Source of the DNA: Candidatus Caldarchaeales archaeon
Lineage (GTDB): Archaea; Thermoproteota; Nitrososphaeria_A; Caldarchaeales; Calditenuaceae
NCBI GenBank assembly: GCA_032249095.1
Contig: JAVVGN010000045.1
Coordinates: 1 to 15,992, forward strand
Length of the DNA stretch: 15,992 nucleotides
Direction: 5' to 3'
Numbering within the stretch: position 1 is the first letter of the stretch; each line of letters opens with the position of its first letter. The notes under the pieces are model-generated. The model saw only the letters and a list, made by a program, of their open reading frames with translations, had not been told where the DNA came from and did no database searches. The translations under genes and the position numbers were made by a program. Shown here piece after piece: positions 2,795 to 14,938 of this stretch.

Positions 2795-3337
2795 CTATAG
2801 TGTTATGCTCTTCTCCTTCATCTCTTTTGCGGCCTGCTCGATGGATTTTATTATGTTTATGTAGCCTGTGCATCTGCAGAGGTTTCCCGAGATCCCCCAC
2901 TTTATCTCTTCACGGGTCGGGCTTGGATTCCGCATCAATAGGCCCAGCGCGGCCATTATCATGCCCGGTGTGCAGAAGCCGCACTGTAGGCCGTGGTTCT
3001 CCCAGAAGGCCCTCTGGAGCGGGTGTAGCTCCCCATTCTTAGCCAGACCCTCTATGGTCAGGACCTCCATGCCGTCTGCCTGCGCTGCGAGCATGGTGCA
3101 GGACTTGACCGCCCGCCACGTAGCCTCGCCCGGGCCCCTGATCAACACTGTGCACGCGCCGCAGTGGGAGGTGTCGCACCCGACGTGGGTTCCGGTCAGG
3201 CCTAGGATGCTCCTGAGGTAGTGTACTAGGAGGAGCCTCGGCTCAACGCTGTGGGTGTATTGGGCTCCGTTCACCTTCAGCGTTATCTGGACGGGGGAGG
3301 GTGATGGAGCCGCTCTAGGTGATGGGCGCCTAGGCAA
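2795..3337 (-). CDS. coxS: [2Fe-2S]-binding small subunit of an aerobic CO dehydrogenase / xanthine dehydrogenase family molybdenum hydroxylase
   Basis: Both Fe-S motifs are present: [12 protein letters not shown] (plant-ferredoxin type) and [10 protein letters not shown]...[12 protein letters not shown] start at 3337 with a Pro-rich extension of about 15 aa. The gene overlaps the upstream coxM-like gene by 8 nt. Confidence 0.9.
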
Positions 3338-4223
3338 CTGTCGCCACCTCCAGTGTTAATCCGGCCCGGCTCAACGCCTCCTCCAGGGCCCTCCTCACTA
3401 GGACCCTCGCCAGCCACTTCTTATATTCGGCGGAGCCCCTCAGGTCGCTGACCGGCTGAGCCGGCTCGGCCGCAACCTCCGCGGCCTTCTCGATCAGGTC
3501 GCGTGTAGGGGCCTTGCCTCTCAGCATCCTCTCAGCCCTGTCAGCCCTGTAGGGGGTTGGGCTGACCGCGCCCACCGCTATCGAGGCGGACTGAACGCTG
3601 CCTTTCTTCCCAGGCACGACGACCGCTGCCACGTTCACCGTGGCGAAGTCTCCCGCCTTCCTCTCGAACTTCTGCCAGGACCAGCCGTGACCAGGCCTCG
3701 GCTTAGGCACCACTATCTCTGTGACGACCTCGTAGGGCTTGAGGGCGGTGGTGAAGGGGCCCTTGAGGAAGCGCCTGATGGGTATGACCCTTCTGCCGGA
3801 GCCCTGAACGACGATGCTCGCGTCAAGCGCCAACAGAGCGACTGGCCAGTCGGCGGCCGGGTCGTTATGGGCTACGGAGCCTCCGATCGTCCCTAGGTTC
3901 CTGACCTGCATGTCTCCTATCCATCTAGCGGTCTCCGGGAGCAAGGGCACGGTGCTGCGCAACTCTTCGGAGAACTCAACCTCGCCATGGGTTGTGAGGG
4001 ACCCTATCCTTATCGTCCTGCCGGAGTCCTTAACGTAGGAAAGCATGCCCTTGAGGTTTTTCAAGTCGATAATTATCGAGGGGCTGAGGATCCGGAGCTT
4101 CATCATCGGTATGAGGCTCTGGCCCCCAGCCAGGACCTTGGCCTCATCCTTATGTTGCCTGAGAAGAGTAACGACCTCGCGCAGACTGCTCGGAGCATAG
4201 TAGCTGAACTTCCTTGGATACAA
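3330..4223 (-). CDS. coxM: FAD-binding medium subunit of a CO dehydrogenase / xanthine dehydrogenase family enzyme
   Basis: The N-terminus is (TTG)[16 protein letters not shown]...[16 protein letters not shown]. The [18 protein letters not shown] block is typical of CoxM/CutM FAD_binding_5 proteins. 297 aa. Confidence 0.9.
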
Positions 4224-4290: not shown

Positions 4291-4905
4291 TTGGGTCGCG
4301 AGGGCTTGGGGGCGGGAGAGAGTGTTTATGAGGCGTCGGAGGATACTTGGTTGCTCGAGGTCTCGCTTCTGAAGCTCGATTGTAGCGGCCTCGCGATCGA
4401 TGTGGGATGTGGGGGCGGCGACATTGCACTCACTCTTCTCAAGCGGGGTGGCGAGGTGGTGGCGCTTGACATCTCGGAAGAGGCTGTGAGAGTTACGGCC
4501 AGAAGGTCCGCGCAGAACAGCTGGAGACTCCACGTCATGGTGTGCGACAGGCTAGCAGCCCTAAGGCCGACGGGCCGTATATCCGTCATAGCGTGTAACC
4601 CTCCGTATCTCCCATCGGAGGAGCCGGCCGACAGGGCGGTGGACGGCGGACCCTCAGGGGCAGAGTTCTCGCTCGAGCTGATCTCGCAGGCAAGGCCATT
4701 CCTAGATAGGGGGGCCCGCCTTGTCCTAATCACCTCCACCCTCGGCGGTGAAGACGCCATACTGGAGGCCTGTAAGAAGATAGGTCTCCGAACGGAGATG
4801 CTCGGCTCTAGGAGGCTCTTCTTCGAGGAGCTCCACTGCTACCTAGTCGTAGGGCGGGATACTGGGCCGGAGAGGTGGAGGCTTATAGCTCGGCGAGCCG
4901 CGTGA
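4291..4905 (+). CDS. SAM-dependent methyltransferase with an NPPY motif (HemK/PrmC/Mtq2-like protein glutamine-N5 methyltransferase family)
   Basis: VYEASEDTWLL near the N-terminus, the SAM motif I LAIDVGCGGGDIAL, an acidic residue after strand 2 (VVALDIS), and the catalytic IACNPPYLP. About 200 aa, as in archaeal Mtq2 homologues. TTG start. Confidence 0.75.
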   Translation: MGREGLGAGESVYEASEDTWLLEVSLLKLDCSGLAIDVGCGGGDIALTLLKRGGEVVALDISEEAVRVTARRSAQNSWRLHVMVCDRLAALRPTGRISVIACNPPYLPSEEPADRAVDGGPSGAEFSLELISQARPFLDRGARLVLITSTLGGEDAILEACKKIGLRTEMLGSRRLFFEELHCYLVVGRDTGPERWRLIARRAA

Positions 4906-6550
4906 TGACATCTCTATAGATGTCTTTGGAGGCCATGTCCTCTATCAGTAGAATGCCGTACTGGGAGGCTAGGAACTTCGCGTCTTCGCTAAGCTTCCGC
5001 ATTGATAGGAGGGCGACCCTCTCGAGTCTCAAGTCTGACTTGACGAATATGAGTCGTATTATGCTGTTGACGGACAGCCCCTCACCTAGGTCTTGGAGGA
5101 AAAAGACTGCGCGGTCAAGCTTACCCTCCCTCCCGAAGAGTAGGTCGATGCGGTGCGTCACCTTGGAGGCGCCCACGACCCTCGAGTTGACCCGCGCCTC
5201 GAACCCCCTTCTTCTCAGCTCCTCCGCGATTGTCCGCATGGGCTTGCTCCGCTCCTGTAAAGCGTTTATTACCTCGGGGTTTACTGTGTATCTGTAGAAG
5301 GTCCTGAACTCGAAGCTACTCATGTCGTAGTCTATGCCACATATTAGGCACCTGAAGGTGATGTTGGGGTCTAGGCTCACCTCGTTGCAGTCGAAGCACG
5401 TGAAGAAGGTTGAGTGGACCTTGAGGACCTCGGCCCCACCCTCCTCTAGGGGGCTCGCGGTTATCCTGACCTGGGAGCCACATCTCGGACAGATCGTTCT
5501 CTCACCCGCGACGAAGCTGGTCTCCGGGCCGAGGTATCCGCAGGCCTCGTGTTGCATGACCCTCTGCCTCCCAATATTTACCGAGCCGCACGCCTTGCAT
5601 CGCAGATTCATCGTGTGAAGCGCGCTCTGGCAGTGGGGGCAGACGATCTTCTTGAACTCTACCCCCGCGACCCGCACAACGTTCTTGTCCTGAAGCCTCC
5701 TGAGCAGCCGCATGACGATACCGGTCTCCACGCCGAGCCTCGACTCGATTGAGGGGAAAGACCCGCCCTCTGGGGAAGTGTTATTCGGGAGGGGGACGAT
5801 CTCGCTCAGCCCCTCATCAACAATAATGTCGAGAAGCATCTCCTCAAGCTCGTCTAGGCTGGGCGCTGGGGTGGCGCGTGCCGTGATATCTACGCCCTCC
5901 TCCTCACGTAATGCGCCGGTCTCCACGAGGGGCGGCCCAGGCACCTCCTCCTCAGGGGCCGCTGTCTCGGCAGGGCCGGACTCCGCTGTTTCGCCCGTAG
6001 ACTCCGCGCCGGCAACCTGTGGTGACGTGGCTGGGGCCTGGCTCGGCTGGGCGGTTGGCTGTGGAGCCTCCATGACGGTTCCGCCTGAGGGTGGGGGCGC
6101 GGTCGGAGTCGAGGGCTGCTGCATAGCGGCGGACTCCATCTGAGTCTGCGGCCTCGGGGCCCTTGCAGCGACTAGGTAGAGGATGGTCGGCTTGAGCCCG
6201 TACGCCACGCCAACCCCGGCCGTGATAGCTAGATAGGGGGCCAGGGGGAGAATAATCCCGGCGATGTCTGTCGCTGGAGGGGGTAGGATAATGAGCGCGA
6301 CGACCCAGCCGGCGGCCGAGCCTACGAGGAGTATGACCAGCTCGCGGGCGAGGCGCCACGATATAAGCCCGTTCAGGACTCCCAGCAGGAGCCCCGTCGA
6401 CAGGCTGGACAGGAGTCCCCGGACAGACGCCTCGACGGCGAGCGCCGCGTATATGATGGGTTGGAAGAACCCCCACCCCACAACCCAGAGGACAAACGAG
6501 ATGGCTAAGGCAAGCATCGTCCGGAGGATTAGGCCCGAGACTATGCTCAT
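4883..6550 (-). CDS. Polytopic membrane protein fused to a disordered P/A/T/Q-rich linker, a winged-helix-like segment, three zinc ribbons and a C-terminal alpha/beta (restriction-endonuclease-like?) domain; putative membrane-tethered regulator
   Basis: 555 aa. Residues 1-130 form 4-5 hydrophobic helices. Residues 131-225 are low complexity (APRPQTQ...PSTPTAPPPSGG...). Residues 262-300 read SFPSIESRLGVETGIVMRLLRRLQDKNVVRV. Cys pairs are C304xxC-x10-C318xxC, H334/C337...C354xxC, and C385xxC-x12-C401xxC. The tail is IAEELRRRGFEARV...THRIDLLF...AVFFLQD...LIFVKSD. Confidence 0.75.
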   Translation of the reverse strand: MSIVSGLILRTMLALAISFVLWVVGWGFFQPIIYAALAVEASVRGLLSSLSTGLLLGVLNGLISWRLARELVILLVGSAAGWVVALIILPPPATDIAGIILPLAPYLAITAGVGVAYGLKPTILYLVAARAPRPQTQMESAAMQQPSTPTAPPPSGGTVMEAPQPTAQPSQAPATSPQVAGAESTGETAESGPAETAAPEEEVPGPPLVETGALREEEGVDITARATPAPSLDELEEMLLDIIVDEGLSEIVPLPNNTSPEGGSFPSIESRLGVETGIVMRLLRRLQDKNVVRVAGVEFKKIVCPHCQSALHTMNLRCKACGSVNIGRQRVMQHEACGYLGPETSFVAGERTICPRCGSQVRITASPLEEGGAEVLKVHSTFFTCFDCNEVSLDPNITFRCLICGIDYDMSSFEFRTFYRYTVNPEVINALQERSKPMRTIAEELRRRGFEARVNSRVVGASKVTHRIDLLFGREGKLDRAVFFLQDLGEGLSVNSIIRLIFVKSDLRLERVALLSMRKLSEDAKFLASQYGILLIEDMASKDIYRDVITRLAEL

Positions 6551-6639: not shown

Positions 6640-7986
6640 TCACCCCCCACACTCTAGGGCCTGCATCTCGGTCGTCTGTATGGTCTCGATGGAGACGACG
6701 GGGACCACCACTGTGATGATCGTGATGGTTGAGGTCGTCACGTTGAGCGATCTGACGAGGGTTTCCCTCCTGAGGAGGCATACGTCTATGTAGCCCGTCG
6801 TTGTGAGGGAGGTCCTGGGGTCTGAGGTGTCTACTGTGAAGCTGCCGGGCACCTCGATGCTTCCCTCGGGGACGTGGAGCACGTACCTGTAATTCGTGGG
6901 CGGGCTGTAGGGTACCTCGCAGATGAAGACGGCTGATGCGCTATCACCCGGGTTAAGCCTCGATATGCGGACCTCTAGTGGGCTACTGCAAGTGAATCCC
7001 ACCGGATCAAGCCTCACGGTTGCGTTCAGCGTGGGGCCGGGCACGGCAGAGTCGTAGGCCAGTACGAAGGAGATGTTGACGAGGGCGGTGGGGGTGTTTG
7101 TCGTGTTGAAGATTATCAGCCTCGGCACCGGGTTAGTGATCCTCAGTATTAGGGGCCAAGAGTGCTGGGTGACGTTGAAGCGGAGCAGGACGTGGCTGTC
7201 TACCACGACGCTTCTTGCGTAGAGGGGAATGATTGCTGCCCAGCTCCCGTCGTTCCTCATCACCTCTGCCATGACGTTGTACCTCCCGGGAGCGACGTTG
7301 AAGACGAAGACCTCTTCCCTCCCGATCCTACCCGTGCTGGACCCTAGATCTCGAACCTCGACGTACCTCTTGACCCAGAGCTCGGCCCTGCAGAAGTCTA
7401 GGCTGCTCTCGGATGATGATGGGAGAACGCATCCGTCGCCCTCCGTAGCCACCCTGACGCGGTAGACGCTGGAGACGCTTAGGTTGGTCAGCGAGATCAT
7501 GAGGAGGTAGGGCAGCTTCTTTGGGCCTATCTCGTAGGGCGAGACAAAGGAGTTGCCCCTCGCGGTGGCGAGCCGCACCCTGATCAGCTCGTTCGGCTGG
7601 AGCTGATAGTTGAGCCTCACGACGCTCCTCTCACCCGGCGCGAGGATTATGGGTTGTTCCGAGGCCCTGAGGACTCCGTTGATCGTACTCTCGATATAGA
7701 TGGCTTGGACCGTGGTTTCTATCGGCGAGCTGTTCGTGATGTTGAGGACGGGCTGGTATTGGCCCGGCGAGTCGGCGGCGCTGCTCAGGGTGAGGGACAT
7801 GTCGAGCTTCTCCCTAAGCTTCTCAGCCTCAAAGATGAGGCGCCTGTTGACAGAGTCCATATACATTGTTTGGAGCTGCTGCATGTAGATCCACATAGGT
7901 ATCACTATCGTGAAAAAGACGAGTAGGCCGATGACTGTTCCCAGGACCGCGGAGACGCCTGCCCCCTTCCTACGAGTTCTCGCCAT
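6640..7986 (-). CDS. Large type IV pilin-like (class III signal peptide) surface protein, family B
   Basis: The N-terminus MARTRRKG/AGVSAVLGTVIGLLVFFTIVIPMWIYM has a basic leader, Gly, then a hydrophobic helix of about 22 aa. It is a clear paralogue of the 396-aa protein (AGVS...FFT..VP..YM; NxSP..I; ATARGNSFVS versus VTERGRLFAS). It has many N-x-S/T sequons. ATG start with gggggtga 9 nt upstream. Confidence 0.75.
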   Translation of the reverse strand: MARTRRKGAGVSAVLGTVIGLLVFFTIVIPMWIYMQQLQTMYMDSVNRRLIFEAEKLREKLDMSLTLSSAADSPGQYQPVLNITNSSPIETTVQAIYIESTINGVLRASEQPIILAPGERSVVRLNYQLQPNELIRVRLATARGNSFVSPYEIGPKKLPYLLMISLTNLSVSSVYRVRVATEGDGCVLPSSSESSLDFCRAELWVKRYVEVRDLGSSTGRIGREEVFVFNVAPGRYNVMAEVMRNDGSWAAIIPLYARSVVVDSHVLLRFNVTQHSWPLILRITNPVPRLIIFNTTNTPTALVNISFVLAYDSAVPGPTLNATVRLDPVGFTCSSPLEVRISRLNPGDSASAVFICEVPYSPPTNYRYVLHVPEGSIEVPGSFTVDTSDPRTSLTTTGYIDVCLLRRETLVRSLNVTTSTITIITVVVPVVSIETIQTTEMQALECGG

Positions 7987-7988
7987 GG

Positions 7989-8552
7989 CTAGTTGTCACC
8001 CCCTATTTTCGTGGTGGTTGTGGTAGTGGTTACCGTGTATGTTTGCGTTGTAGTGGTTATGACTGTTGTGGTGACGGTGGTGAGTCTGTATGTCCCGAGA
8101 GTCGTTGTTGATGTCGTGCTCACAGTTGTGGGCGTTGTTAGCGTCGTCACGGTTGTTACAGTCGTCGTCTGAGTCGTAGTCGTAGGTCCATAGACCGTGG
8201 TGGATCTCGTGGTTGTCGTAGTCAACACACGATACACAGTGACGGTTGTAGTCGCGGTGACACTATTTGTCAGGGTTCGGACAGTGGTGGTAGTTGTGGT
8301 GGTTATTGTTCTTATGACTCTGGTCGAGAGGGTGCTTATGGTTCTGGTCGTAGTCGTCGTCGTGGTGGTTGATGCCGTGGCCTCCCCCGATAGCACAGTC
8401 GTCGTCTCCGTCGTCGTTACATAGGTGGTTGTTGTTGTCGTTACGGTGGTGTATGTAGTCGAGGTTGATGTCCGCGTCCTAGAGCCCTGTGCCAAGACCT
8501 CTCCAACGTGTGCCGAGAAGCCGATCAATACGATGAGCGCCAAGACGGTCAC
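7989..8552 (-). CDS. Secreted hyper-threonine-rich protein (about 56% Thr after the signal peptide)
   Basis: The minus-strand ORF sits 2 nt before and 20 nt after its neighbouring genes. The hydrophobic N-terminus is MTVLALIVLIGFSAHVGEVLA/QGS. Then follow 163 aa made almost only of T, V, S, R, Y and I. The composition matches the in-frame Thr-rich tail of the upstream 605-aa gene, which supports this strand and frame. The start may lie further upstream (see findings). Confidence 0.65.
   Translation of the reverse strand: MTVLALIVLIGFSAHVGEVLAQGSRTRTSTSTTYTTVTTTTTTYVTTTETTTVLSGEATASTTTTTTTTRTISTLSTRVIRTITTTTTTTVRTLTNSVTATTTVTVYRVLTTTTTRSTTVYGPTTTTQTTTVTTVTTLTTPTTVSTTSTTTLGTYRLTTVTTTVITTTTQTYTVTTTTTTTKIGGDN
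7992..8480 (-). repeat. Low-complexity ACN-codon (Thr) coding tract 1
   Basis: The plus strand is almost entirely G/T-rich triplets (ggt, tgt, cgt, agt, gta, gac). No exact repeat unit is discernible by eye. Confidence 0.8.
7996..8003 (-). promoter_or_regulatory. Shine-Dalgarno-like site for the 448-aa gene
   Basis: The minus strand reads gggggtga, followed 9 nt later by the ATG at 7986. Confidence 0.5.
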
Positions 8553-8572
8553 GAGAGCCGCGGCATCCCTCC

Positions 8573-10390
8573 TCAGAGGGCCTTCACCTCCATCCTCCTC
8601 GCTAGGCGCCAGAGCAGCGGCGCCAGACCAGCCGAGGCGGCGACTGCCCCGCCCATAGCCATCAGGGCCTCGTAGCCGCTATTAACCGTTCCAGCCCCCA
8701 CCGGAAGGACCGGTACTGCCCCTCCGGCCCTGCTTATGGTAGTGGTGGTCGTGGTGGTTGTGGTCACGGTGGTCCGCGCGGTGGAGGTGCTTGTGGCAGT
8801 AGATGTCACCGTGTAGGTGGCGGTGTAGGAGGTGGTGGTTTGGGTTATGGTCGTGGTGGCGGTGGGGGAGTAGAGGGTGCTGGTCTGGGTTGTGCTTGAG
8901 GCTGTCCTGACGGTGGAGGTGGTGGTGTAGCTGGTCGAAGTTCGTGCTAGGGTGACCCACTGCGTTGATGTGTAGCTGGTGAACGTGGCCATCCTGGTTG
9001 TCACGGTCGTTGTGGTGGTAGTGCTTGATGTACTTGTCGAGATAGTGGTTCTGGTTGATGTTGTGGTTGTGGTAGACGTGTATACGGTCCGCGTAGTAGT
9101 TGTCGTTGTCGTGCTGGTCAGCGTTCTAGTGGTGCTCGGCACCGTTGTGGACGTGGTTTTCGTGGTCGTCGCCGTAGCTGTCGCCGTCACGGTTGTCGTA
9201 AGAGTAACCCAAACAACCTCGACATCCGTTACGTCTACATACTCTATGCTGACCTCGTAGAGGTTCAGTATCGAGGTTGGTGGGTTCAGGTGGTAGGTCC
9301 CCTGGGAGACTTGGTACATCACTCCCTGGGGATCAAAGTCCAAGAGGAGCCGCCCACCAGTGGTATAGCTGCTGACGCAGTCCCGTATCGCTAGCGTGAC
9401 TTGGACGGTGGCCTGGTCCGTCGAATAGGCAGAGACTAGGAAGCTGTTGGCAAGCCTATTCAGAAGATCTACATTGAGCTTAGCATAATCAGGGAAGATA
9501 ACGTCTCCCGCCACATCAAAGCGCCATATCTGGGGGAGGATGGTGTAGTCATCGGAGGTGATTGACACGGTCATGGGGTACCGGAGCGTCTGCCCCGATA
9601 GGGGGACGCGGATCTCCATCGGCGGCTCGCCCGACACGTGGATCGCTCCGCCCGCTAGGTTTCCACCCCCATCCAGAATCTTTACATCGATGTTTGTGTC
9701 TAGCACTCGGTCGCTCGCCATCAGCAACCTCAGCTTAACCTCATTGTTCACCACGAAAACTAGCTCCCCGTTCTCCAGCGCCGCCGATTCCACTGGATCA
9801 ACAAGCTCCACGAAGATCCAGCTGCTTGGCGGGGGGCAGGACTCGCTTAACCCCGCGCGGGGCGTAGCTGCCTCGAAGGACGAGACCTTGAAGAGCTCCG
9901 TCCTTAGGAGGGCCTCGATGGATCCCGGATCGCCAGGCCTTATGAGGGCTGTTGGTAGATAGTGCGCGGTAACCAGGATGGGGTCGCCCCTGCGGCATCC
10001 GGGGCATCTGAAGGAGACCTCCGCGACCTCTGCAACATTCAGCGTGACAAAGCGGGACGGGTCGAGGCCGCTATCGTAGGCGAGCGAGCCATTCCGATAA
10101 ACTATTATGCGGAAGATAGTGATCCTCTCGTATCCTACGTTTCTAAACCTTGCCACCCCGTATCCAGCCTCCTCAGGGATCCTCCAGTCGGGGAAGTACA
10201 CGTAGTCAGCCCCCAGCATCGACCTGAGGACGAGGCTATCCTTGTTGAGGCTCTGGACAGCCTCCTGCCTCCCGATAGACGAGTAGGAGGAGAGGAGTCC
10301 GAGCATGCCAAGCCCTATTGCGACGACCACAGAGAGCGTCATCGCTGTAGAGACAACGTCTGAGTCGCCCCTACGCGGCCCACGCCTCAA
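8573..10390 (-). CDS. Large type IV pilin-like (class III signal) protein, family A, with a C-terminal Thr-rich stalk and a C-terminal hydrophobic anchor
   Basis: The N-terminus is (TTG)RRGPRRG/DSDVVSTAMTLSVVVAIGLGMLGLL. The N-domain shares FRNVGYERITIFRIIVY...CPGCRRGDPILVTAHYLPTALIRPGDP with the 172- and 400-aa proteins. Residues 396-552 are about 56% Thr. The C-terminus is YEALMAMGGAVAASAGLAPLLWRLARRMEVKAL. The TTG start overlaps the upstream stop as TTGA, with gaggtga 7 nt upstream. Confidence 0.75.
   Translation of the reverse strand: MRRGPRRGDSDVVSTAMTLSVVVAIGLGMLGLLSSYSSIGRQEAVQSLNKDSLVLRSMLGADYVYFPDWRIPEEAGYGVARFRNVGYERITIFRIIVYRNGSLAYDSGLDPSRFVTLNVAEVAEVSFRCPGCRRGDPILVTAHYLPTALIRPGDPGSIEALLRTELFKVSSFEAATPRAGLSESCPPPSSWIFVELVDPVESAALENGELVFVVNNEVKLRLLMASDRVLDTNIDVKILDGGGNLAGGAIHVSGEPPMEIRVPLSGQTLRYPMTVSITSDDYTILPQIWRFDVAGDVIFPDYAKLNVDLLNRLANSFLVSAYSTDQATVQVTLAIRDCVSSYTTGGRLLLDFDPQGVMYQVSQGTYHLNPPTSILNLYEVSIEYVDVTDVEVVWVTLTTTVTATATATTTKTTSTTVPSTTRTLTSTTTTTTTRTVYTSTTTTTSTRTTISTSTSSTTTTTTVTTRMATFTSYTSTQWVTLARTSTSYTTTSTVRTASSTTQTSTLYSPTATTTITQTTTSYTATYTVTSTATSTSTARTTVTTTTTTTTTISRAGGAVPVLPVGAGTVNSGYEALMAMGGAVAASAGLAPLLWRLARRMEVKAL
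8584..8591 (-). promoter_or_regulatory. Strong Shine-Dalgarno-like site inside the 3-prime end of the 605-aa gene
   Basis: The minus strand reads ggaggtga. Exactly 7 nt downstream is a CTG (8576-8574) in the frame of the Thr-rich ORF, overlapping the TGA stop as CTGA. Confidence 0.4.
8606..8674 (-). other. C-terminal hydrophobic segment followed by a basic cluster (membrane anchor or sorting-signal-like)
   Basis: ALMAMGGAVAASAGLAPLLW is followed by RLARRMEVKAL. It is preceded by AGGAVPVLPVGAG immediately after the Thr-rich stalk. Confidence 0.5.
8735..9205 (-). repeat. Low-complexity ACN-codon (Thr/Ser) coding tract 2, the stalk of the 605-aa protein
   Basis: Residues 396-552 contain about 88 Thr of 157 by hand count. 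It shares the 14-mer gtggtggttgtggt (8751-8764) with tract 1 (8021-8034). Confidence 0.8.
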
Positions 10391-11589
10391 GAAAGTGTCA
10401 CCTCAACGTGATAGATGTCGGTGATGTCGAGGGGCGCGGGCAGGTCGAGATACGTGGTATCCCACTGTACGCCGGCCGGGAGTGAGACGGTTCTCGACAT
10501 GTCGGCAAGAAGGTTTCCCGCGCAGTCTCTCAGAACTAAGTTAAGCCGGAATGTTACGGGCTCGTCCTGTTTCCCTATCTCGACCTGAATGGTCGTCACG
10601 ACGGGGTTGTCGCTGATGTAGGAGATGTACTGGGTGATGAGGCCGATACCGGAGACGTGGGCGCTGCGGTCTGGCAGCGCGCCAAACTTGAAGTGGCTCG
10701 GTATGGGTATGTAGGAGGACCCCACTACCGATAAGTCGAAGGGAGTGCCTATACCGATGACGCCCCCGACGAACTGCTCATATGTTACGCCAACCCTGAG
10801 GTCCGCAGTCAAAGTTTGGGAGGAGTCCTGGTCAGCGAGCTGGAACTCGAACTGTTGTGTGCTTAGCGTTAGGGGTCTTGCATAGCTTATGAGGACTGAG
10901 AAGCGGTTGTTCGGCGGGTTTGAAAAGGAGCCGGTCAGGAAGTTCGTCACGGGGTCAACAGATGTAAAGGCGGCCCACCTAGCCCCCTCCGGCAGGGCGC
11001 AGGGGCTGCCGATCCTCGTTCCGGGATAAATTATAAGCGTCTCGACATACCGCATCTCGTCCGCCGACAGCTCGGGGTTTGCGTTGTCGTACAGCGCCCT
11101 AGCTATGTACCAGATCCTTATTCTGGTTCTCTCCCCGAAGAAGCAGGAGCTGCATGTTGGCAGCTCAGAACTCGTGAACTCGGCCTTCTCCTGGGGCGAG
11201 ATGGGGTCGAGCCCGCCTGATCCACAGGCGACCCACCTAGCTGGGGGGCTGGGCCACGCGCCGCCTAGCGAGCCGTCCTGCCTTATGAGCTCTATTCGGG
11301 TCACACACAGGTCTAGGGGGGAGATGTTTCTGAGCACAATAAGCCTCAGGTCCTCCCTGGAGGTGTAGCGGACCAGCTCGAAGGCCAGGAGACCGGAGGT
11401 CCTTACTAGGGCGATGCCCTTGTCCGTCTTTTGCGTCGTGTCCGTCGCATTGATGGCGAACCAGCTCGTGGCGAGGGATATGAGGATCAGCCCAACGGCT
11501 AGGGTGATTGCGGCCAAAATGACTGAGGATAGGACTGGAGAGACGCCGCGGGTCCCGTTGCCGGTTGTACGGCGCCTGCTAGACTTCAA
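10387..11589 (-). CDS. Type IV pilin-like (class III signal) protein, family A
   Basis: The N-terminus is (TTG)KSSRRRTTGNGTRG/VSPVLSSVILAAITLAVGLILISL, the canonical archaeal pilin RG/VSPV...ILxAIT motif. The N-domain LRLIVLRNISPLDLCVTRIELI...CSSCFFGERTRIRIWYIARALYDNANP is paralogous to the 172- and 605-aa proteins. No ATG or GTG is available upstream in frame. Confidence 0.8.
   Translation of the reverse strand: MKSSRRRTTGNGTRGVSPVLSSVILAAITLAVGLILISLATSWFAINATDTTQKTDKGIALVRTSGLLAFELVRYTSREDLRLIVLRNISPLDLCVTRIELIRQDGSLGGAWPSPPARWVACGSGGLDPISPQEKAEFTSSELPTCSSCFFGERTRIRIWYIARALYDNANPELSADEMRYVETLIIYPGTRIGSPCALPEGARWAAFTSVDPVTNFLTGSFSNPPNNRFSVLISYARPLTLSTQQFEFQLADQDSSQTLTADLRVGVTYEQFVGGVIGIGTPFDLSVVGSSYIPIPSHFKFGALPDRSAHVSGIGLITQYISYISDNPVVTTIQVEIGKQDEPVTFRLNLVLRDCAGNLLADMSRTVSLPAGVQWDTTYLDLPAPLDITDIYHVEVTLS
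10398..10404 (-). promoter_or_regulatory. Shine-Dalgarno-like site for the 605-aa gene
   Basis: The minus strand reads gaggtga, followed 7 nt later by the TTG at 10390. Confidence 0.5.
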
Positions 11590-11624
11590 TTCTCGCCCAC
11601 ACGCTGGGCATGGGATATTGTTCC

Positions 11625-11637
11625 CCCTATATATGTG
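11625..11637 (-). promoter_or_regulatory. Internal promoter candidate (TATA box) for the 400-aa gene and downstream genes
   Basis: The minus strand reads cacatatataggg in the only sizeable gap of the cluster (166 nt, 11590-11755). It lies about 36-48 nt upstream of the TTG at 11589. A 6-bp perfect inverted repeat, aatcag-n5-ctgatt (11669-11685), lies about 40 nt further upstream. Confidence 0.4.
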
Positions 11638-11755
11638 CGATAGGTCGCGTAGGGTGCCGGATTTGTCAATCAGTCTGGCTGATTAGCCGGATGTGCAATG
11701 ACCGCTGTAGGCGTTTCGGCGGCCTGGAAAAGGTTGGCCATTGCCGGGGCGTTCG

Positions 11756-12946
11756 TTACCCCCGCCTCTGCGGCCTGACGGTTATAGATGTGGAGTCGCT
11801 GTCCGAGGGGTATGCCAGGCCGGATTCCTGGCCGGTCCCTGCGCTTGAGAGGGCGGGGATTGTGATGGTTATCGAGCCGGGGTTATTGCTCCTGAGGTCT
11901 GCGGCGTTTAGGTTGCAGCGGAGCGCTATTGTTGTTGAGCCCGGTGTCAAGGTATCTCCCAGTTGTATGCAGATGAGCGTTCCTGACTCGTAGTCTCCGG
12001 ATAGAGTGATTGAGTTCTGTATGGCCGCATGGTTTATTCCGACGCCCTCGCCGGCCTGTGCGGGGAGTGAGAGTGTTATGTCGAAGCTGAATGACTCGCC
12101 CTCGAGGACCCTTGAGGGCGCAATGATTTCTAGGTCGATGGTTTGCGGGGTTATCTCTGTCCTCGAGAGTATGAATACGACGTTCCAGTAGTCGGGTAGG
12201 GTTACCTCGGCGGGATTTGTGCTTGGCGCGATGAGTCTCCCCGGGCCTATTAGCCCTCCGTTCTCTAGGAGGTAGACATGGAATGTTCCTGCTGTCGCTC
12301 CGAAGGATAGAGATATGTTTTCGTTGCTCGCGGTGGCCTTATACGTGATGGATCGTGGCTGTATGTCGGCGTCCCCTTGTGGGGATATGAGGATTGTGTA
12401 CTGGTTTCCCCTCTTCATGTTGATTATGGAGACCGTGAGGGTGTAGGGGTAGAGGCCTGATGCGAGCCTGCCCCCGATGATGAGTACTGGTGTGGAGGCG
12501 AAGAGCCTTCCCCTCTCCGTGACCGCTATGAACTGGGCCCTCCCCGTAAAGTTTGTGAGGCATTGGTCTACGCGGACCGATGTGTTCCAGCCCGGCGAGA
12601 CGTCTATCGGCGTCTGGATGCATGGGTCGCCGCCTATCGGTGCCGCCTCCTCGACATCCATGGCCCAGATCCTCTGGACCCTGATCATTAGTGGTGATGT
12701 GTTTTTGAGCACCAGCCTTATCTGGTTGCTCGTGGATGGGAATGGTATTATTGTCCCCTCAATCGCGATCTCGAGGCTCTCCGTGGCTCGGTCTATGTCT
12801 CTTATCCTCCTGTAGTTGAGCTCGTTGGAGTAGAGGTTGTATAGGGTTGACATGTATAGGTAGAGTGGGACTAGCGTTGTGAAGAATATGGCTATCGCTA
12901 TCGCCACCCCGACCATCGTGGAGACTCCTGCCCTATCTCGCCTCAT
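11756..12946 (-). CDS. Large type IV pilin-like (class III signal) surface protein, family B
   Basis: The N-terminus is MRRDRA/GVSTMVGVAIAIAIFFTTLVPLYLYM. It is paralogous to the 448-aa protein. The ATG at 12946 overlaps the upstream gene by 14 nt. Confidence 0.75.
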   Translation of the reverse strand: MRRDRAGVSTMVGVAIAIAIFFTTLVPLYLYMSTLYNLYSNELNYRRIRDIDRATESLEIAIEGTIIPFPSTSNQIRLVLKNTSPLMIRVQRIWAMDVEEAAPIGGDPCIQTPIDVSPGWNTSVRVDQCLTNFTGRAQFIAVTERGRLFASTPVLIIGGRLASGLYPYTLTVSIINMKRGNQYTILISPQGDADIQPRSITYKATASNENISLSFGATAGTFHVYLLENGGLIGPGRLIAPSTNPAEVTLPDYWNVVFILSRTEITPQTIDLEIIAPSRVLEGESFSFDITLSLPAQAGEGVGINHAAIQNSITLSGDYESGTLICIQLGDTLTPGSTTIALRCNLNAADLRSNNPGSITITIPALSSAGTGQESGLAYPSDSDSTSITVRPQRRG

Positions 12947-13451
12947 ACCTAGCTACCTGGGCTGACATTACGTTTCTCGCTGGGTCTGCACTGCTGTATA
13001 GGTGCGCGGGCATGTACCAGAGCTCGACTATGTATGGCGGCTCTCCCGGATATCTCTCGCATCCCTGTATGGTTTCGAACCTGTCTGGGGAGGCGGCGAC
13101 TATGGTTGGCTGGATGTTGTACCTTATGCCTGGTGAGGGCCGTGATTTAGGGTAGATTGTGCAGCTGATGACTATTACGTCGTTCATCCCGGGGTTGGAG
13201 ACCCAGACGGCGTTGGTCTGGAGCGAGGCCGCCTCGACTACTAGGAGGATTCTGTGCTGGGAGATCATCCTGTCGTATTCTCTCGATATCTGTGTTCCCT
13301 GGCTCGAGACGTAGCCGAGGGAGAGCGCCCAGAGGGCCACGCCCAGTGTGACGACGCCCGCGAAGAGGAGGATCTCGCCTAGGAGTATTGTGTCGCCTCT
13401 TTTGTTTCGGGGCTGGCGCCTCCTACACATGGGGTTGATTGTCGCGTCCAT
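12933..13451 (-). CDS. Type IV pilin-like (class III signal) protein, family A, stand-alone N-module (pilin-sized)
   Basis: The N-terminus is MDATINPMCRRRQPRNKRG/DTILLGEILLFAGVVTLGVALWAL. It then has AVWVSNPGMNDVIVISCTIY...GCERYPGEPPYIVELWYMPAHLYSSADP, matching the N-domains of the 400- and 605-aa proteins. It is the first gene of the block. Confidence 0.75.
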   Translation of the reverse strand: MDATINPMCRRRQPRNKRGDTILLGEILLFAGVVTLGVALWALSLGYVSSQGTQISREYDRMISQHRILLVVEAASLQTNAVWVSNPGMNDVIVISCTIYPKSRPSPGIRYNIQPTIVAASPDRFETIQGCERYPGEPPYIVELWYMPAHLYSSADPARNVMSAQVARYEAR

Positions 13452-13510: not shown

Positions 13511-14938
13511 TTATAAATGGTTTTTAAATAGTGGTAGTTTTGTGATTAACAGTTTGTTTGGTCGGCCTTGTTTGGTCGAGAGTTGGGGCTGGGGGGCGTT
13601 TGTGTCTCTGCGGTAGAGGTATTCTGCGAGTATTACGATGGCTGCTGTTAGGGCCGCTGTGAATATTATCATTGCTGCACCCTCGAGGAGCCACTGGCCC
13701 TGAGAGTAGTTGTATATGAGTGTGAAGATGAAGTCCCAGTATGGGAAGCCTAGGTTCATTACGACTGCGAGGGGGGCGAGGGCCGCGGTGGCCACTATGG
13801 GGTGGAATGCGAGGCGTGTGGGGCGGGGTTCGTCGCTGTTGGGTCTAAAGGCTATCTGGGCCGCCAGCATGGCTAGAAAGGGGCCGACTGGGTAGAAGTA
13901 GTAGGGGTAGAACTGGCGTGCGAGGACGCCCTGCAGCATCCCGGACCAGTTGGCGGTCCAGTAGTTTCTCGGCAGCAGGAGCATGGTTAGGACTGAGGCG
14001 GAGGCGGCTACCGCGAGGTTTGCGGGTATGTGGAGCCTTCCCTGGAGCGCTCTGTAGAGGATTACCGCCAGCGTGACGAGGGGTGTTATGAAGGGTAGCG
14101 TGTTCCAGAATACTTGACCCATCCCGAGGTATGAAAGGATGTACCACGGAAGTGATTGGGGGACTCCGATGACGAAGGGGCCAACTATTGGTGATAATGG
14201 AATATTGTTAAAGGTCAGGTGACCCTCGACGGTTGTCTTGATTGTCTGTTGTATCCAAAGCCAAGGATTCAGAGATAATGAGATAATTGGCGGGAACATG
14301 TATAAGGCTAGGCGTTTAGGATTAAGCTGATGATGTAACAATAAAAAGAGTGCGAGGACTATGATGAGGATTAGAAACGTCAATTTGGTGAGAACCGCCA
14401 TAGATGCGAACACCGCAGCCAATATAAGATCTCTCCGCCTTTTACTTCTGTACAAACAATATACGCTTGTTACTGCAAATAACGTACCTATTGAGTCGAG
14501 GTATGCTGTAGAATATTGTATTAGGAAGGGGTCAAGTGCTGTGAGAGATGCCGCAACTAATGCTGCTTTATGAGAACGTTTTTTGACAAGCATGTATGTG
14601 GGGATTGTAGTCAGACTGGAGGCTAAAATGGGTGCTAAAAGTCCTGCCTGAGCGTGACCAATAATGGGACCTATTGTGCTGGCTGTCAATCCGGTAAGTA
14701 TCATGCCCAGCGGTGGAACGCCTGTGTTTATTCCTGCCAGCGCTGTGATGTTGAGTGCTTTGATATTTTCGATGTATTGTATTCCGAAAACTGTATAAGT
14801 GTCTACATCGAATATGATTAGAGATGAAGCTCCCCACCCCGGGTATATCCACGTACTGTAGCGTAGAGTGAATCCAAATGTGGTTACGAGCAACAGGGCA
14901 ATTAAGTATCTCTTCGAAAACCATCTGTGCCTACACAT
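13511..14938 (-). CDS. GT-C fold glycosyltransferase, PMT/ArnT-like (GT39/GT83-type, PMT_2-like) polytopic membrane protein
   Basis: 475 aa with about 11-13 hydrophobic helices. An acidic loop motif (IIFDVDTY) follows TM1. The block KAALVAASLTALDPFLIQYSTAYLDSIGTLFAVTSVYCLY...AAVFASMAVLTKLTFLI fits the conserved PMT_2/ArnT core pattern. ATG start with a TATA-like caaataaatac about 30 nt upstream. Confidence 0.7.
   Translation of the reverse strand: MCRHRWFSKRYLIALLLVTTFGFTLRYSTWIYPGWGASSLIIFDVDTYTVFGIQYIENIKALNITALAGINTGVPPLGMILTGLTASTIGPIIGHAQAGLLAPILASSLTTIPTYMLVKKRSHKAALVAASLTALDPFLIQYSTAYLDSIGTLFAVTSVYCLYRSKRRRDLILAAVFASMAVLTKLTFLILIIVLALFLLLHHQLNPKRLALYMFPPIISLSLNPWLWIQQTIKTTVEGHLTFNNIPLSPIVGPFVIGVPQSLPWYILSYLGMGQVFWNTLPFITPLVTLAVILYRALQGRLHIPANLAVAASASVLTMLLLPRNYWTANWSGMLQGVLARQFYPYYFYPVGPFLAMLAAQIAFRPNSDEPRPTRLAFHPIVATAALAPLAVVMNLGFPYWDFIFTLIYNYSQGQWLLEGAAMIIFTAALTAAIVILAEYLYRRDTNAPQPQLSTKQGRPNKLLITKLPLFKNHL

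Follow-up and report, generated by a model that had tools for sequence, protein, structure and literature searches.

The described systems closest to the one considered here are the adhesive pili of Saccharolobus/Sulfolobus islandicus LAL14/1 and S. solfataricus, whose pilins are O-glycosylated and have a globular domain with 37% Ser+Thr, their surface O-glycans being thought to confer solubility and resilience (PMC7347861), and the surface-layer (S-layer) glycoproteins of Halobacterium and Haloferax, which have a glycosylated, Thr-rich stalk next to the membrane; the Ser/Thr clusters of archaeal S-layer glycoproteins are thought to be O-glycosylated by a pathway that is still unknown (PMC6098224). 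As for the sugar and the enzyme, O-glycosylation in Sulfolobus has been reported as a single mannose, and the O-glycosyltransferase acting on the thread of S. acidocaldarius, where the reported modification is O-mannose, is "currently elusive" (PMC11607397). The protein discussed below is encoded by an open reading frame (ORF) at 7989..8552 on the minus strand of a 15,992-nucleotide (nt) stretch of DNA from a Candidatus Caldarchaeales archaeon, hereafter the window; it is an exported protein, half of whose residues are threonine, and its gene lies among genes for pilin-like proteins.

Like the Sulfolobales adhesive pili, this Thr protein belongs to a thermophile and to a putative archaeal type-IV-pilus context, is enriched in Thr and Ser, and has few charged residues. 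The Sulfolobales proteins, however, are themselves pilins, with a class III signal, an N-terminal core helix and a folded globular domain, whereas the Thr protein has about 62% Ser+Thr, a Sec-type signal and no recognisable globular domain, and is the product of a separate gene beside large pilin-like proteins. With the S-layer stalks it shares the character of a Thr-rich, probably glycosylated spacer close to the membrane, and its 605-amino-acid (aa) neighbour has the same globular-stalk-transmembrane layout; unlike those stalks, it is free-standing, anchorless, much longer and richer in Thr, and conserved in length and landmarks. Another precedent is given by ArlF/ArlG (FlaF/FlaG), archaellum accessory proteins that are not pilins, have a hydrophobic segment at the N-terminus and act between the membrane and the S-layer; they too are pseudoperiplasmic proteins encoded inside a type-IV-filament operon, but they have an ordinary beta-sandwich and no Thr bias. 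Finally, in actinobacteria and fungi, Thr/Ser-rich secreted proteins are O-mannosylated by protein mannosyltransferases (PMT; GT-39, GT-C) (PMC11727336), and in the window a PMT_2-type GT-C gene likewise occurs near candidates for Sec-exported, Thr-rich proteins; here the relation of enzyme to substrate is a presumed one, and the family PF13231 also covers GT-C enzymes that do not modify proteins. The family, systematically unannotated in the pilus loci of Caldarchaeales, is best seen as one more form of the Thr-rich glycoprotein modules already known.

A conserved gene for a half-threonine exported protein

Regarding its coordinates, the ORF runs from the first canonical start codon, GTG 8552, to a TAG at 7989-7991 and encodes a protein of 187 aa with 93 Thr (49.7%). 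Behind the predicted signal peptide lies a mature chain (7992..8489, minus) of 166 aa with 92 Thr (55.4%), 11 Ser and a net positive charge; an earlier reading of the DNA from its letters alone, the original prediction, had counted about 92 Thr in 163 residues (about 56%), a correct number of Thr in a chain of slightly wrong length. Ser and Thr together make up about 62% of the chain (55% Thr and 7% Ser), Pro occurs only twice, and the remainder is chiefly V, R, L, G, Y and I; Cys, Trp, His, Phe and Met are absent, as had been predicted, and there is no N-x-S/T sequon. The longest Thr runs have 8, 7, 7, 6 and 5 residues, in agreement with the expected runs of seven and eight; the run of nine was not found. 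All four Thr codons are interleaved in the ORF, as had been noticed (ACC 30, ACG 27, ACA 21, ACT 15), and Tandem Repeats Finder returned only weak, short arrays on the Thr tract (scores 31-38), which upholds the view that the tract is not a simple slippage microsatellite.

The ORF is conserved in place, frame and length. It lies between a 605-like and a 448-like gene in 18 of the 18 related loci obtained by encoding-contig and genome searches and in all 28 metagenome loci with enough upstream DNA, and this order holds even where the 448-aa marker is only 33-40% identical; an absent or out-of-frame tract was encountered in none of them. The hosts are Caldarchaeales (Ca. Calditenuis fumarioli, Calditenuaceae and Ca. 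Caldarchaeum), known from metagenome-assembled genomes (MAGs) of hot-spring and geothermal metagenomes, and the collected set comprises 30 distinct mature sequences. Among 11 representative versions, the sense frame of the Thr ORF is the only one with zero stops in 11/11; every other frame is interrupted in at least 10 of the 11, with 1-28 stops per version at varying positions (in the lineage L013, sense frame +2 happens to be free of stops), and the Val-rich antisense frame has 2-5 stops per version.

At the nucleotide level, the window and the L007 lineage differ at 35, 23 and 105 first, second and third codon positions, respectively, and 51 of their 79 aligned Thr-Thr pairs use different codons, with other pairs of versions behaving alike; the wobble base is thus randomised while Thr is kept, which indicates that Thr is maintained. 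L016 and L017 align with zero indels at about 50% amino-acid identity. When HMMER was run with composition correction, orthologues were significant, with library-scale E-values of 1e-41, 1e-23, 1e-6 and 7e-4, so that the similarity is positional and not merely compositional. The proposal that the composition is selected at the protein level is borne out by these data. It should be noted that the third positions of the sense frame are also those of the antisense Val frame, so that codon-position and dN/dS-type (nonsynonymous to synonymous) counts are unable to tell the two apart; the assignment of the frame therefore rests on the stops, the signal peptide, the Shine-Dalgarno (SD)-like motif and the coupling to the neighbouring genes. 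As for the latter, the stop of the Thr ORF lies 0-4 nt before the next start, or overlaps it, in most lineages, and in the others up to about 38 nt separate it from the first matched residue of the next gene. The Thr ORF is a real, conserved and operon-linked gene of fixed length with a signal peptide, under purifying selection in the sense frame, and the conservation of composition and frame in the 30 versions is far beyond chance.

One lineage departs from this pattern: in L027 (4644-5225 of the 258-kb contig Ga0074074_11922), an in-frame TAG stands 10 codons short of the usual end, and the codons past it (TKTVGGG) are intact. A recent nonsense mutation or a sequencing error could account for this stop, or the tail may be dispensable.

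The Thr frame was called as a gene in none of the 13 public contigs with gene calls (JGI, ENA and NCBI MAGs; L001-L013), where antisense Val-rich ORFs of 37-102 aa are annotated instead. In the window, the ORFs called by public gene callers encode 59, 75 and 77 aa and lie on the plus strand within 7993..8658 (7993-8172, 8197-8424 and 8425-8658). These calls, together with the inability of wobble turnover to discriminate between the two strands, are what could be said for the opposite reading, that the region is a low-complexity spacer or that the antisense ORFs are the true genes. Such a reading is extremely improbable, given the stops scattered through the antisense frames, against a sense frame that alone is open in all 11 versions, and given that the signal peptide, the SD-like motif, the start and stop overlaps and the in-frame conservation of length all belong to the sense strand; moreover, no Rfam match was found over the Thr region at E ≤ 1. 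The antisense ORFs are judged to be annotation artefacts, very likely propagated into protein databases.

An exhaustive phmmer search of 1.84 billion representatives with the single protein as query returned 0 matches, and so did word-indexed searches of 5.8 billion clusters, for which both this protein and a profile of 11 sequences served as queries; an exact look-up of 10 versions, the window's included, among about 15 billion proteins found none of them. A profile search of the PDB gave nothing at E ≤ 10, Pfam/NCBIfam gave nothing at E ≤ 0.1, and no description of the Thr-rich protein was found in the literature, all of which accords with the initial impression that no archaeal protein of this composition had been characterised between pilin genes. 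In a local HMMER control, close and mid-distance orthologues were detectable at library scale; the empty searches hence mean "never called as a gene" and not "undetectable", and public collections hold no member of the family because gene callers annotate the antisense Val-rich ORFs. The family illustrates cleanly how an extreme composition can hide conserved genes from standard gene callers.

Export signal and anatomy of the chain

The predicted signal peptide, MTVLALIVLIGFSAHVGEVLA (8490..8552, minus), ends in a candidate signal-peptidase-I site, V-L-A|Q, which agrees with the hydrophobic signal followed by QGS that had been proposed at first (VLA|QGS). By sequence inspection, the family has the features of a Sec (type I) signal: a charged n-region, with K/R in every version whose orthologous start codon is a canonical one; a hydrophobic core, roughly 18-22 residues long, in which one Gly is the same in all versions; and small residues at -3 and -1. 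This V/A-x-A/G site and the Gln at +1 are kept in all orthologous versions, the predicted cleavage sites being V-L-A|Q, V-A-A|Q, V-Y-A|Q, A-G-A|Q, A-V-G|Q, V-I-G|Q and A-V-A|Q.

As for translation initiation, most lineages have an ATG, GTG or TTG start about 7 nt past an SD-like GGAGGTGA or GGTGAGGTG motif, and this start and the stop of the 605-like gene have 4 nt in common; other lineages have related purine-rich GGTG/GAGG motifs at a variable distance from the start. The window has the SD-like GGAGGTGA (8584..8591, minus), and 7 nt after it, at the site of the orthologues' start, a CTG (8576-8574) that overlaps the TGA of the upstream gene (CTGA); motif and spacing are those of L009, where GGAGGTGA is followed after 7 nt by TTG. 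Codon-aligned upstream regions point to a possible N-terminal extension, L/M-RRDAAAL (8553..8576, minus), and a precursor started at the CTG would have 195 aa and a normal RR n-region; position 8576, which the original prediction had given as the upper limit of the gene, is this in-frame CTG. The next canonical start, GTG 8552, lies 14 nt past a second motif, GAGGAGGG. The L007 lineage shares the window's CTG and retains the SD motif, the spacing and the two following Arg codons. CTG therefore stands at the orthologous start in two lineages although motif and spacing are kept in both, and initiation there may be non-canonical or dependent on reinitiation after termination of the upstream gene.

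The N-terminus also bears on the question of whether the Thr protein might be a pilin, with a class III signal, an alpha-1 helix and an O-glycosylated outer domain as in the S. islandicus adhesive pilus. The company of five genes with class-III-like N-termini would fit such an identity, as would the N-terminus K-G/A|V-T of the L011, L013, L026 and L027 subclade, which conforms to the prepilin-peptidase motif, and the precedent of the Ser+Thr-rich, O-glycosylated Sulfolobales pilins (PMC7347861). However, the K/R-G/A motif is missing in most lineages (RRDAAAL in the window, RNTALL in L009, KPRLM in L014, NRSLA in L016, NGKMV in L017, and also in L007, L018, L019, L033 and L035), whereas the small residues at -3 and -1 and the invariant Gln past the hydrophobic segment are typical of signal peptidase I. 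The Thr protein matched no profile of the Pilin_N, arch_flag_Nterm or UpsA-UpsB type (Pfam/NCBIfam, E ≤ 0.1), and better candidates for a major pilin exist in related loci, namely small proteins of 133-156 aa with UpsA/arch_flag_Nterm or sub-threshold Pilin_N similarity. Since the prepilin-peptidase motif is not conserved and the cleavage site after the helix is, a pilin identity is very unlikely.

Regarding the mature chain, the landmarks of the window copy are Q1, R, VTTTET..SGE, TTLTTPTTV and a C-terminal GG-x-N, and across the family Q1, R5, one Pro (…T-P-T-T…), one Ser (T-E/D-S) and the C-terminal Gly (GGxN/G-x-G-N) are invariant or nearly so. In an alignment of 169 columns, T or S is retained by 80% or more of the sequences at 70 positions, and 8 columns are conserved hydrophobic. 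Of the 30 distinct sequences, 28 have a mature chain of 166, 164 or 142 aa, and the two exceptions have 154 and 141 aa; the loci of Calditenuis type encode 166 or 164 aa and those of Caldarchaeum type 142 aa. Within a length class there are no indels, even at about 50% identity, and the classes differ by block deletions that total 22-24 aa. In the 11 versions, the net charge of the chain is +1 to +8 and Cys is absent; 10 of these 11 have no N-x-S/T sequon.

Two pictures had been drawn of this chain from its composition, and neither survives unchanged. The first, a beta-rich fibre in which TxT ladders form a beta-solenoid as in insect or bacterial ice-binding proteins, has in its favour the wealth of beta-forming residues, the short TVTVT segments, a weak lag-2 signal (0.14) in the autocorrelation of the Thr indicator (lags 1-12 tested), and a single-sequence AlphaFold (AF2) model with long beta hairpins. 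That model is of low confidence (mean predicted local distance difference test, pLDDT, 48.7), and the hydrophobic pattern has no periodicity at lags 1-45; nor does the autocorrelation peak at lags 3-45 or any internal or tandem repeat appear, where a regular coil of about 12-19 aa would be expected. With a PDB profile search that was empty and hosts that come from hot-spring and geothermal MAGs, a regular TxT solenoid is hardly credible, the lack of periodicity and of any PDB relative being the decisive points; a general tendency towards beta structure is all that is left of this picture, and it is only hinted at by the model.

The second picture, a mucin-like and densely O-glycosylated chain, fares better as far as glycosylation is concerned. 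In its extreme form, a secreted brush or slime that coats the cell or the filaments with neither a defined structure nor a partner, it would account for the very high Thr/Ser content, the missing C-terminal anchor, the scarcity of conserved hydrophobic columns, the lack of periodicity and the glycan genes nearby. Mucin-like tracts, however, normally vary in length, and neither tandem repeats nor rapid changes in length are found here: the chain holds to its three lengths with zero indels at about 50% identity, its T/S columns and specific non-Thr landmarks are kept, and its gene is tightly coupled between the same two genes at every locus. The constancy of length and landmarks speaks against a mucin brush that evolves freely, and such a brush is accordingly regarded as rather unlikely. 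What holds of the original proposal is a plausible O-glycosylated stalk, with which the absence of sequons and the linked PMT_2-type and glycan genes are consistent, short of proof.

The 605-aa neighbour, probable glycosylation and a possible role

The gene upstream of the Thr ORF (8573..10390, minus) encodes a 605-aa protein composed, in order, of a class-III-like N-terminus, about 390 aa free of Thr bias and presumably globular, a Thr stretch, a GG motif, a transmembrane (TM) helix and a basic tail. The Thr stalk (8720..9220, minus; residues 391-557) has 167 aa, 88 of them Thr; the TM anchor, YEALMAMGGAVAASAGLAPLLW (8609..8674, minus), and the basic tail after it are kept in orthologues. The protein is apparently anchored at both ends, by the class-III-like helix and by the TM helix (residues 573-594), and its stalk is 53% Thr; such a layout, pilin-like and tethered by a stalk, is unusual and is kept in all related loci. 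Stalk and mature Thr chain have nearly the same length, 167 against 166 aa in the window and about 151-156 against 142 aa in Caldarchaeum-type loci. A common origin of the two was also considered. Cross-HMM (hidden Markov model) scores, compared with full and 15-aa-block shuffles, gave z values of 0-2, which is not beyond composition, in a test of low power (z 0.5-5 for the cross-clade positive control), and DNA repeats between the Thr ORF and the stalk are at the level of composition only. Paralogy was thus not retained and a common origin is unproven; the match in length is an observation and not a demonstrated interaction.

The locus itself appears to be type-IV-pilus-like, as the original prediction had it when it placed the ORF in a pilin-like operon. 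The 605-aa protein, the 448-aa protein encoded downstream (6640..7986, minus; start 2 nt past the stop of the Thr ORF) and three more proteins of the same operon (10387..13451, minus) have an N-terminus in which a basic stretch is followed by G and a hydrophobic helix of about 20 residues, the class III or pilin pattern; the three are the 172-aa (12933-13451), 396-aa (11756-12946) and 400-aa (10387-11589) proteins. The N-termini of these pilin-like neighbours, including the 400- and 448-aa proteins, give weak matches to UpsA/UpsB profiles. An AlphaFold model of the 448-aa protein built with 13 homologues (pLDDT 83) places a helix at residues 9-58 ahead of beta-sandwich domains, for which Foldseek found only generic multi-domain immunoglobulin (Ig)-like beta-sandwich matches with low TM-scores (alpha-2-macroglobulin, integrins, PrgB). 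Related loci have genes for a T2SSE ATPase and a T2SSF platform protein, and also for small proteins whose Pilin_N matches are below threshold. It is the class-III-like N-termini, the helix-plus-Ig fold and these T2SSE, T2SSF and Pilin_N genes that point to a type-IV-pilus-like locus.

As for glycosylation, five genes upstream of the Thr ORF a multi-pass membrane protein of 475 aa is encoded (13511..14938, minus), which is 58% identical to a 459-aa orthologue (L009:3038-4417) that passes Pfam PMT_2 (PF13231, a GT-C glycosyltransferase family) with 38.2 bits (cut-off 26.1, E 2.2e-9); the copies of the window and of L007 have no Pfam PMT_2 match. An FkbM methyltransferase gene and an EamA-like gene stand next to it in the window, and elsewhere glycan genes near the locus include GT2 (L011, L016), FkbM (L016) and PGM/PMM (L017). 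The Thr protein has 0 N-x-S/T sequons, against 8 in the 448-aa protein.

The best explanation of these data, held with slightly better than even confidence, is that the Thr protein is a Sec-exported, probably O-glycosylated, extended rod that serves as an accessory of a Caldarchaeales type-IV-pilus-like apparatus and works with the 605-aa protein. According to this explanation, a Sec-type signal peptide would export the protein, and cleavage after V-x-A/G would create a new N-terminal Gln on a slightly basic, Cys-free chain of fixed length (166 aa here) with about 55% Thr. Its gene would be translationally coupled to the upstream 605-aa and the downstream 448-aa pilin-like genes, and the protein would be a dedicated part of an apparatus specific to Caldarchaeales. 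On the external side of the membrane, it may form an extended, beta-prone and probably O-glycosylated rod beside, or paired with, the equally long, membrane-tethering Thr stalk of the 605-aa protein, and the two could make up a hydrophilic stalk or sheath that has a defined length, withstands heat and proteases, and is located where the appendage has its base. Cleavage of the signal peptide, O-glycosylation, conformation and the partnership with the 605-aa protein are the inferred parts of this account.

Several points weigh against it. Where the orthologues start, the window has CTG in place of a canonical start codon, and the GTG start 24 nt downstream would give no charged n-region; the L027 lineage has its premature stop; with 8 conserved hydrophobic columns out of 169, a normal globular beta fold is doubtful; and the sole structure model is the low-confidence, single-sequence one. 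The covariation in length with the 605-aa stalk is based on two deep clades only, and no similarity between the two chains goes beyond composition. The PMT_2-type gene was seen only in the window's clade, with a single orthologue as its Pfam support, and is not within about 10 kb of the locus in L011, L016 and L017; the glycan genes linked to the locus might also be there for the N-glycosylation of neighbouring proteins rather than for the Thr protein.

A more daring extension, distinctly unlikely as it stands, would make the Thr protein and the 605-aa stalk dedicated substrates of the linked PMT_2-type GT-C enzyme, the glycosylated chains pairing into a stalk of fixed length that sets the geometry of a new, membrane-tethered type-IV-filament apparatus. 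If true, the locus would be the first in Archaea to link the genes of an enzyme and its substrates in one module for protein O-glycosylation, probably O-mannosylation. Apart from this extension, the family provides candidate natural substrates for archaeal protein O-glycosylation, with a linked GT-C gene in one clade, at a time when the transferase is still elusive (PMC11607397, PMC6098224). A strictly length-conserved, low-complexity chain with about 55% Thr is unusual, and together with the doubly anchored 605-aa protein it suggests a so far undescribed architecture of the pilus base in Caldarchaeales. These hosts are uncultured, and hypotheses derived from sequence are the main route to the biology of their cell surface. 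In conclusion, the observation of a gene for a half-threonine exported protein is confirmed, and the interpretation first given to it is partly supported.

Neighbouring genes and other observations

The 448-aa protein of the window was found unchanged in several public metagenome assemblies and in one NCBI MAG. Its residues 395-446 are predicted to form a long beta hairpin rich in T, V and I (…NVTTSTITIITVVVPVVSIETIQTT…), and the protein ends in Cys-Gly-Gly.

The segment 13511-15992 of the window, which contains the GT-C/PMT_2-like gene, a fragment of an EamA-like transporter gene and FkbM, has a lower G+C content, 49% for the 475-aa gene against 56-61% for its neighbours; in L007 and L009, it is T2SSE and T2SSF genes that lie past the GT-C gene. 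These differences suggest that a glycosylation cassette has been swapped.

Next to the 448-aa gene in the co-directional row, a membrane protein of 555 aa with a TackOD1 (zinc-ribbon output) domain is encoded (4883-6550, minus). A TackOD1 protein occurs beside the pilus locus in all lineages examined (for instance, L011 1-499 and 18744-19622, and L017 15483-17084), and it may be a dedicated regulator or sensor. Further downstream of the pilus row, at 2795-4223 and 1202-2050 on the minus strand, the window contains genes for CoxS/CoxM-like subunits of a molybdenum hydroxylase (Fer2_2; FAD_binding_5 and CO_deh_flav_C) and for a UbiA-family prenyltransferase, whose position is syntenic in close relatives.

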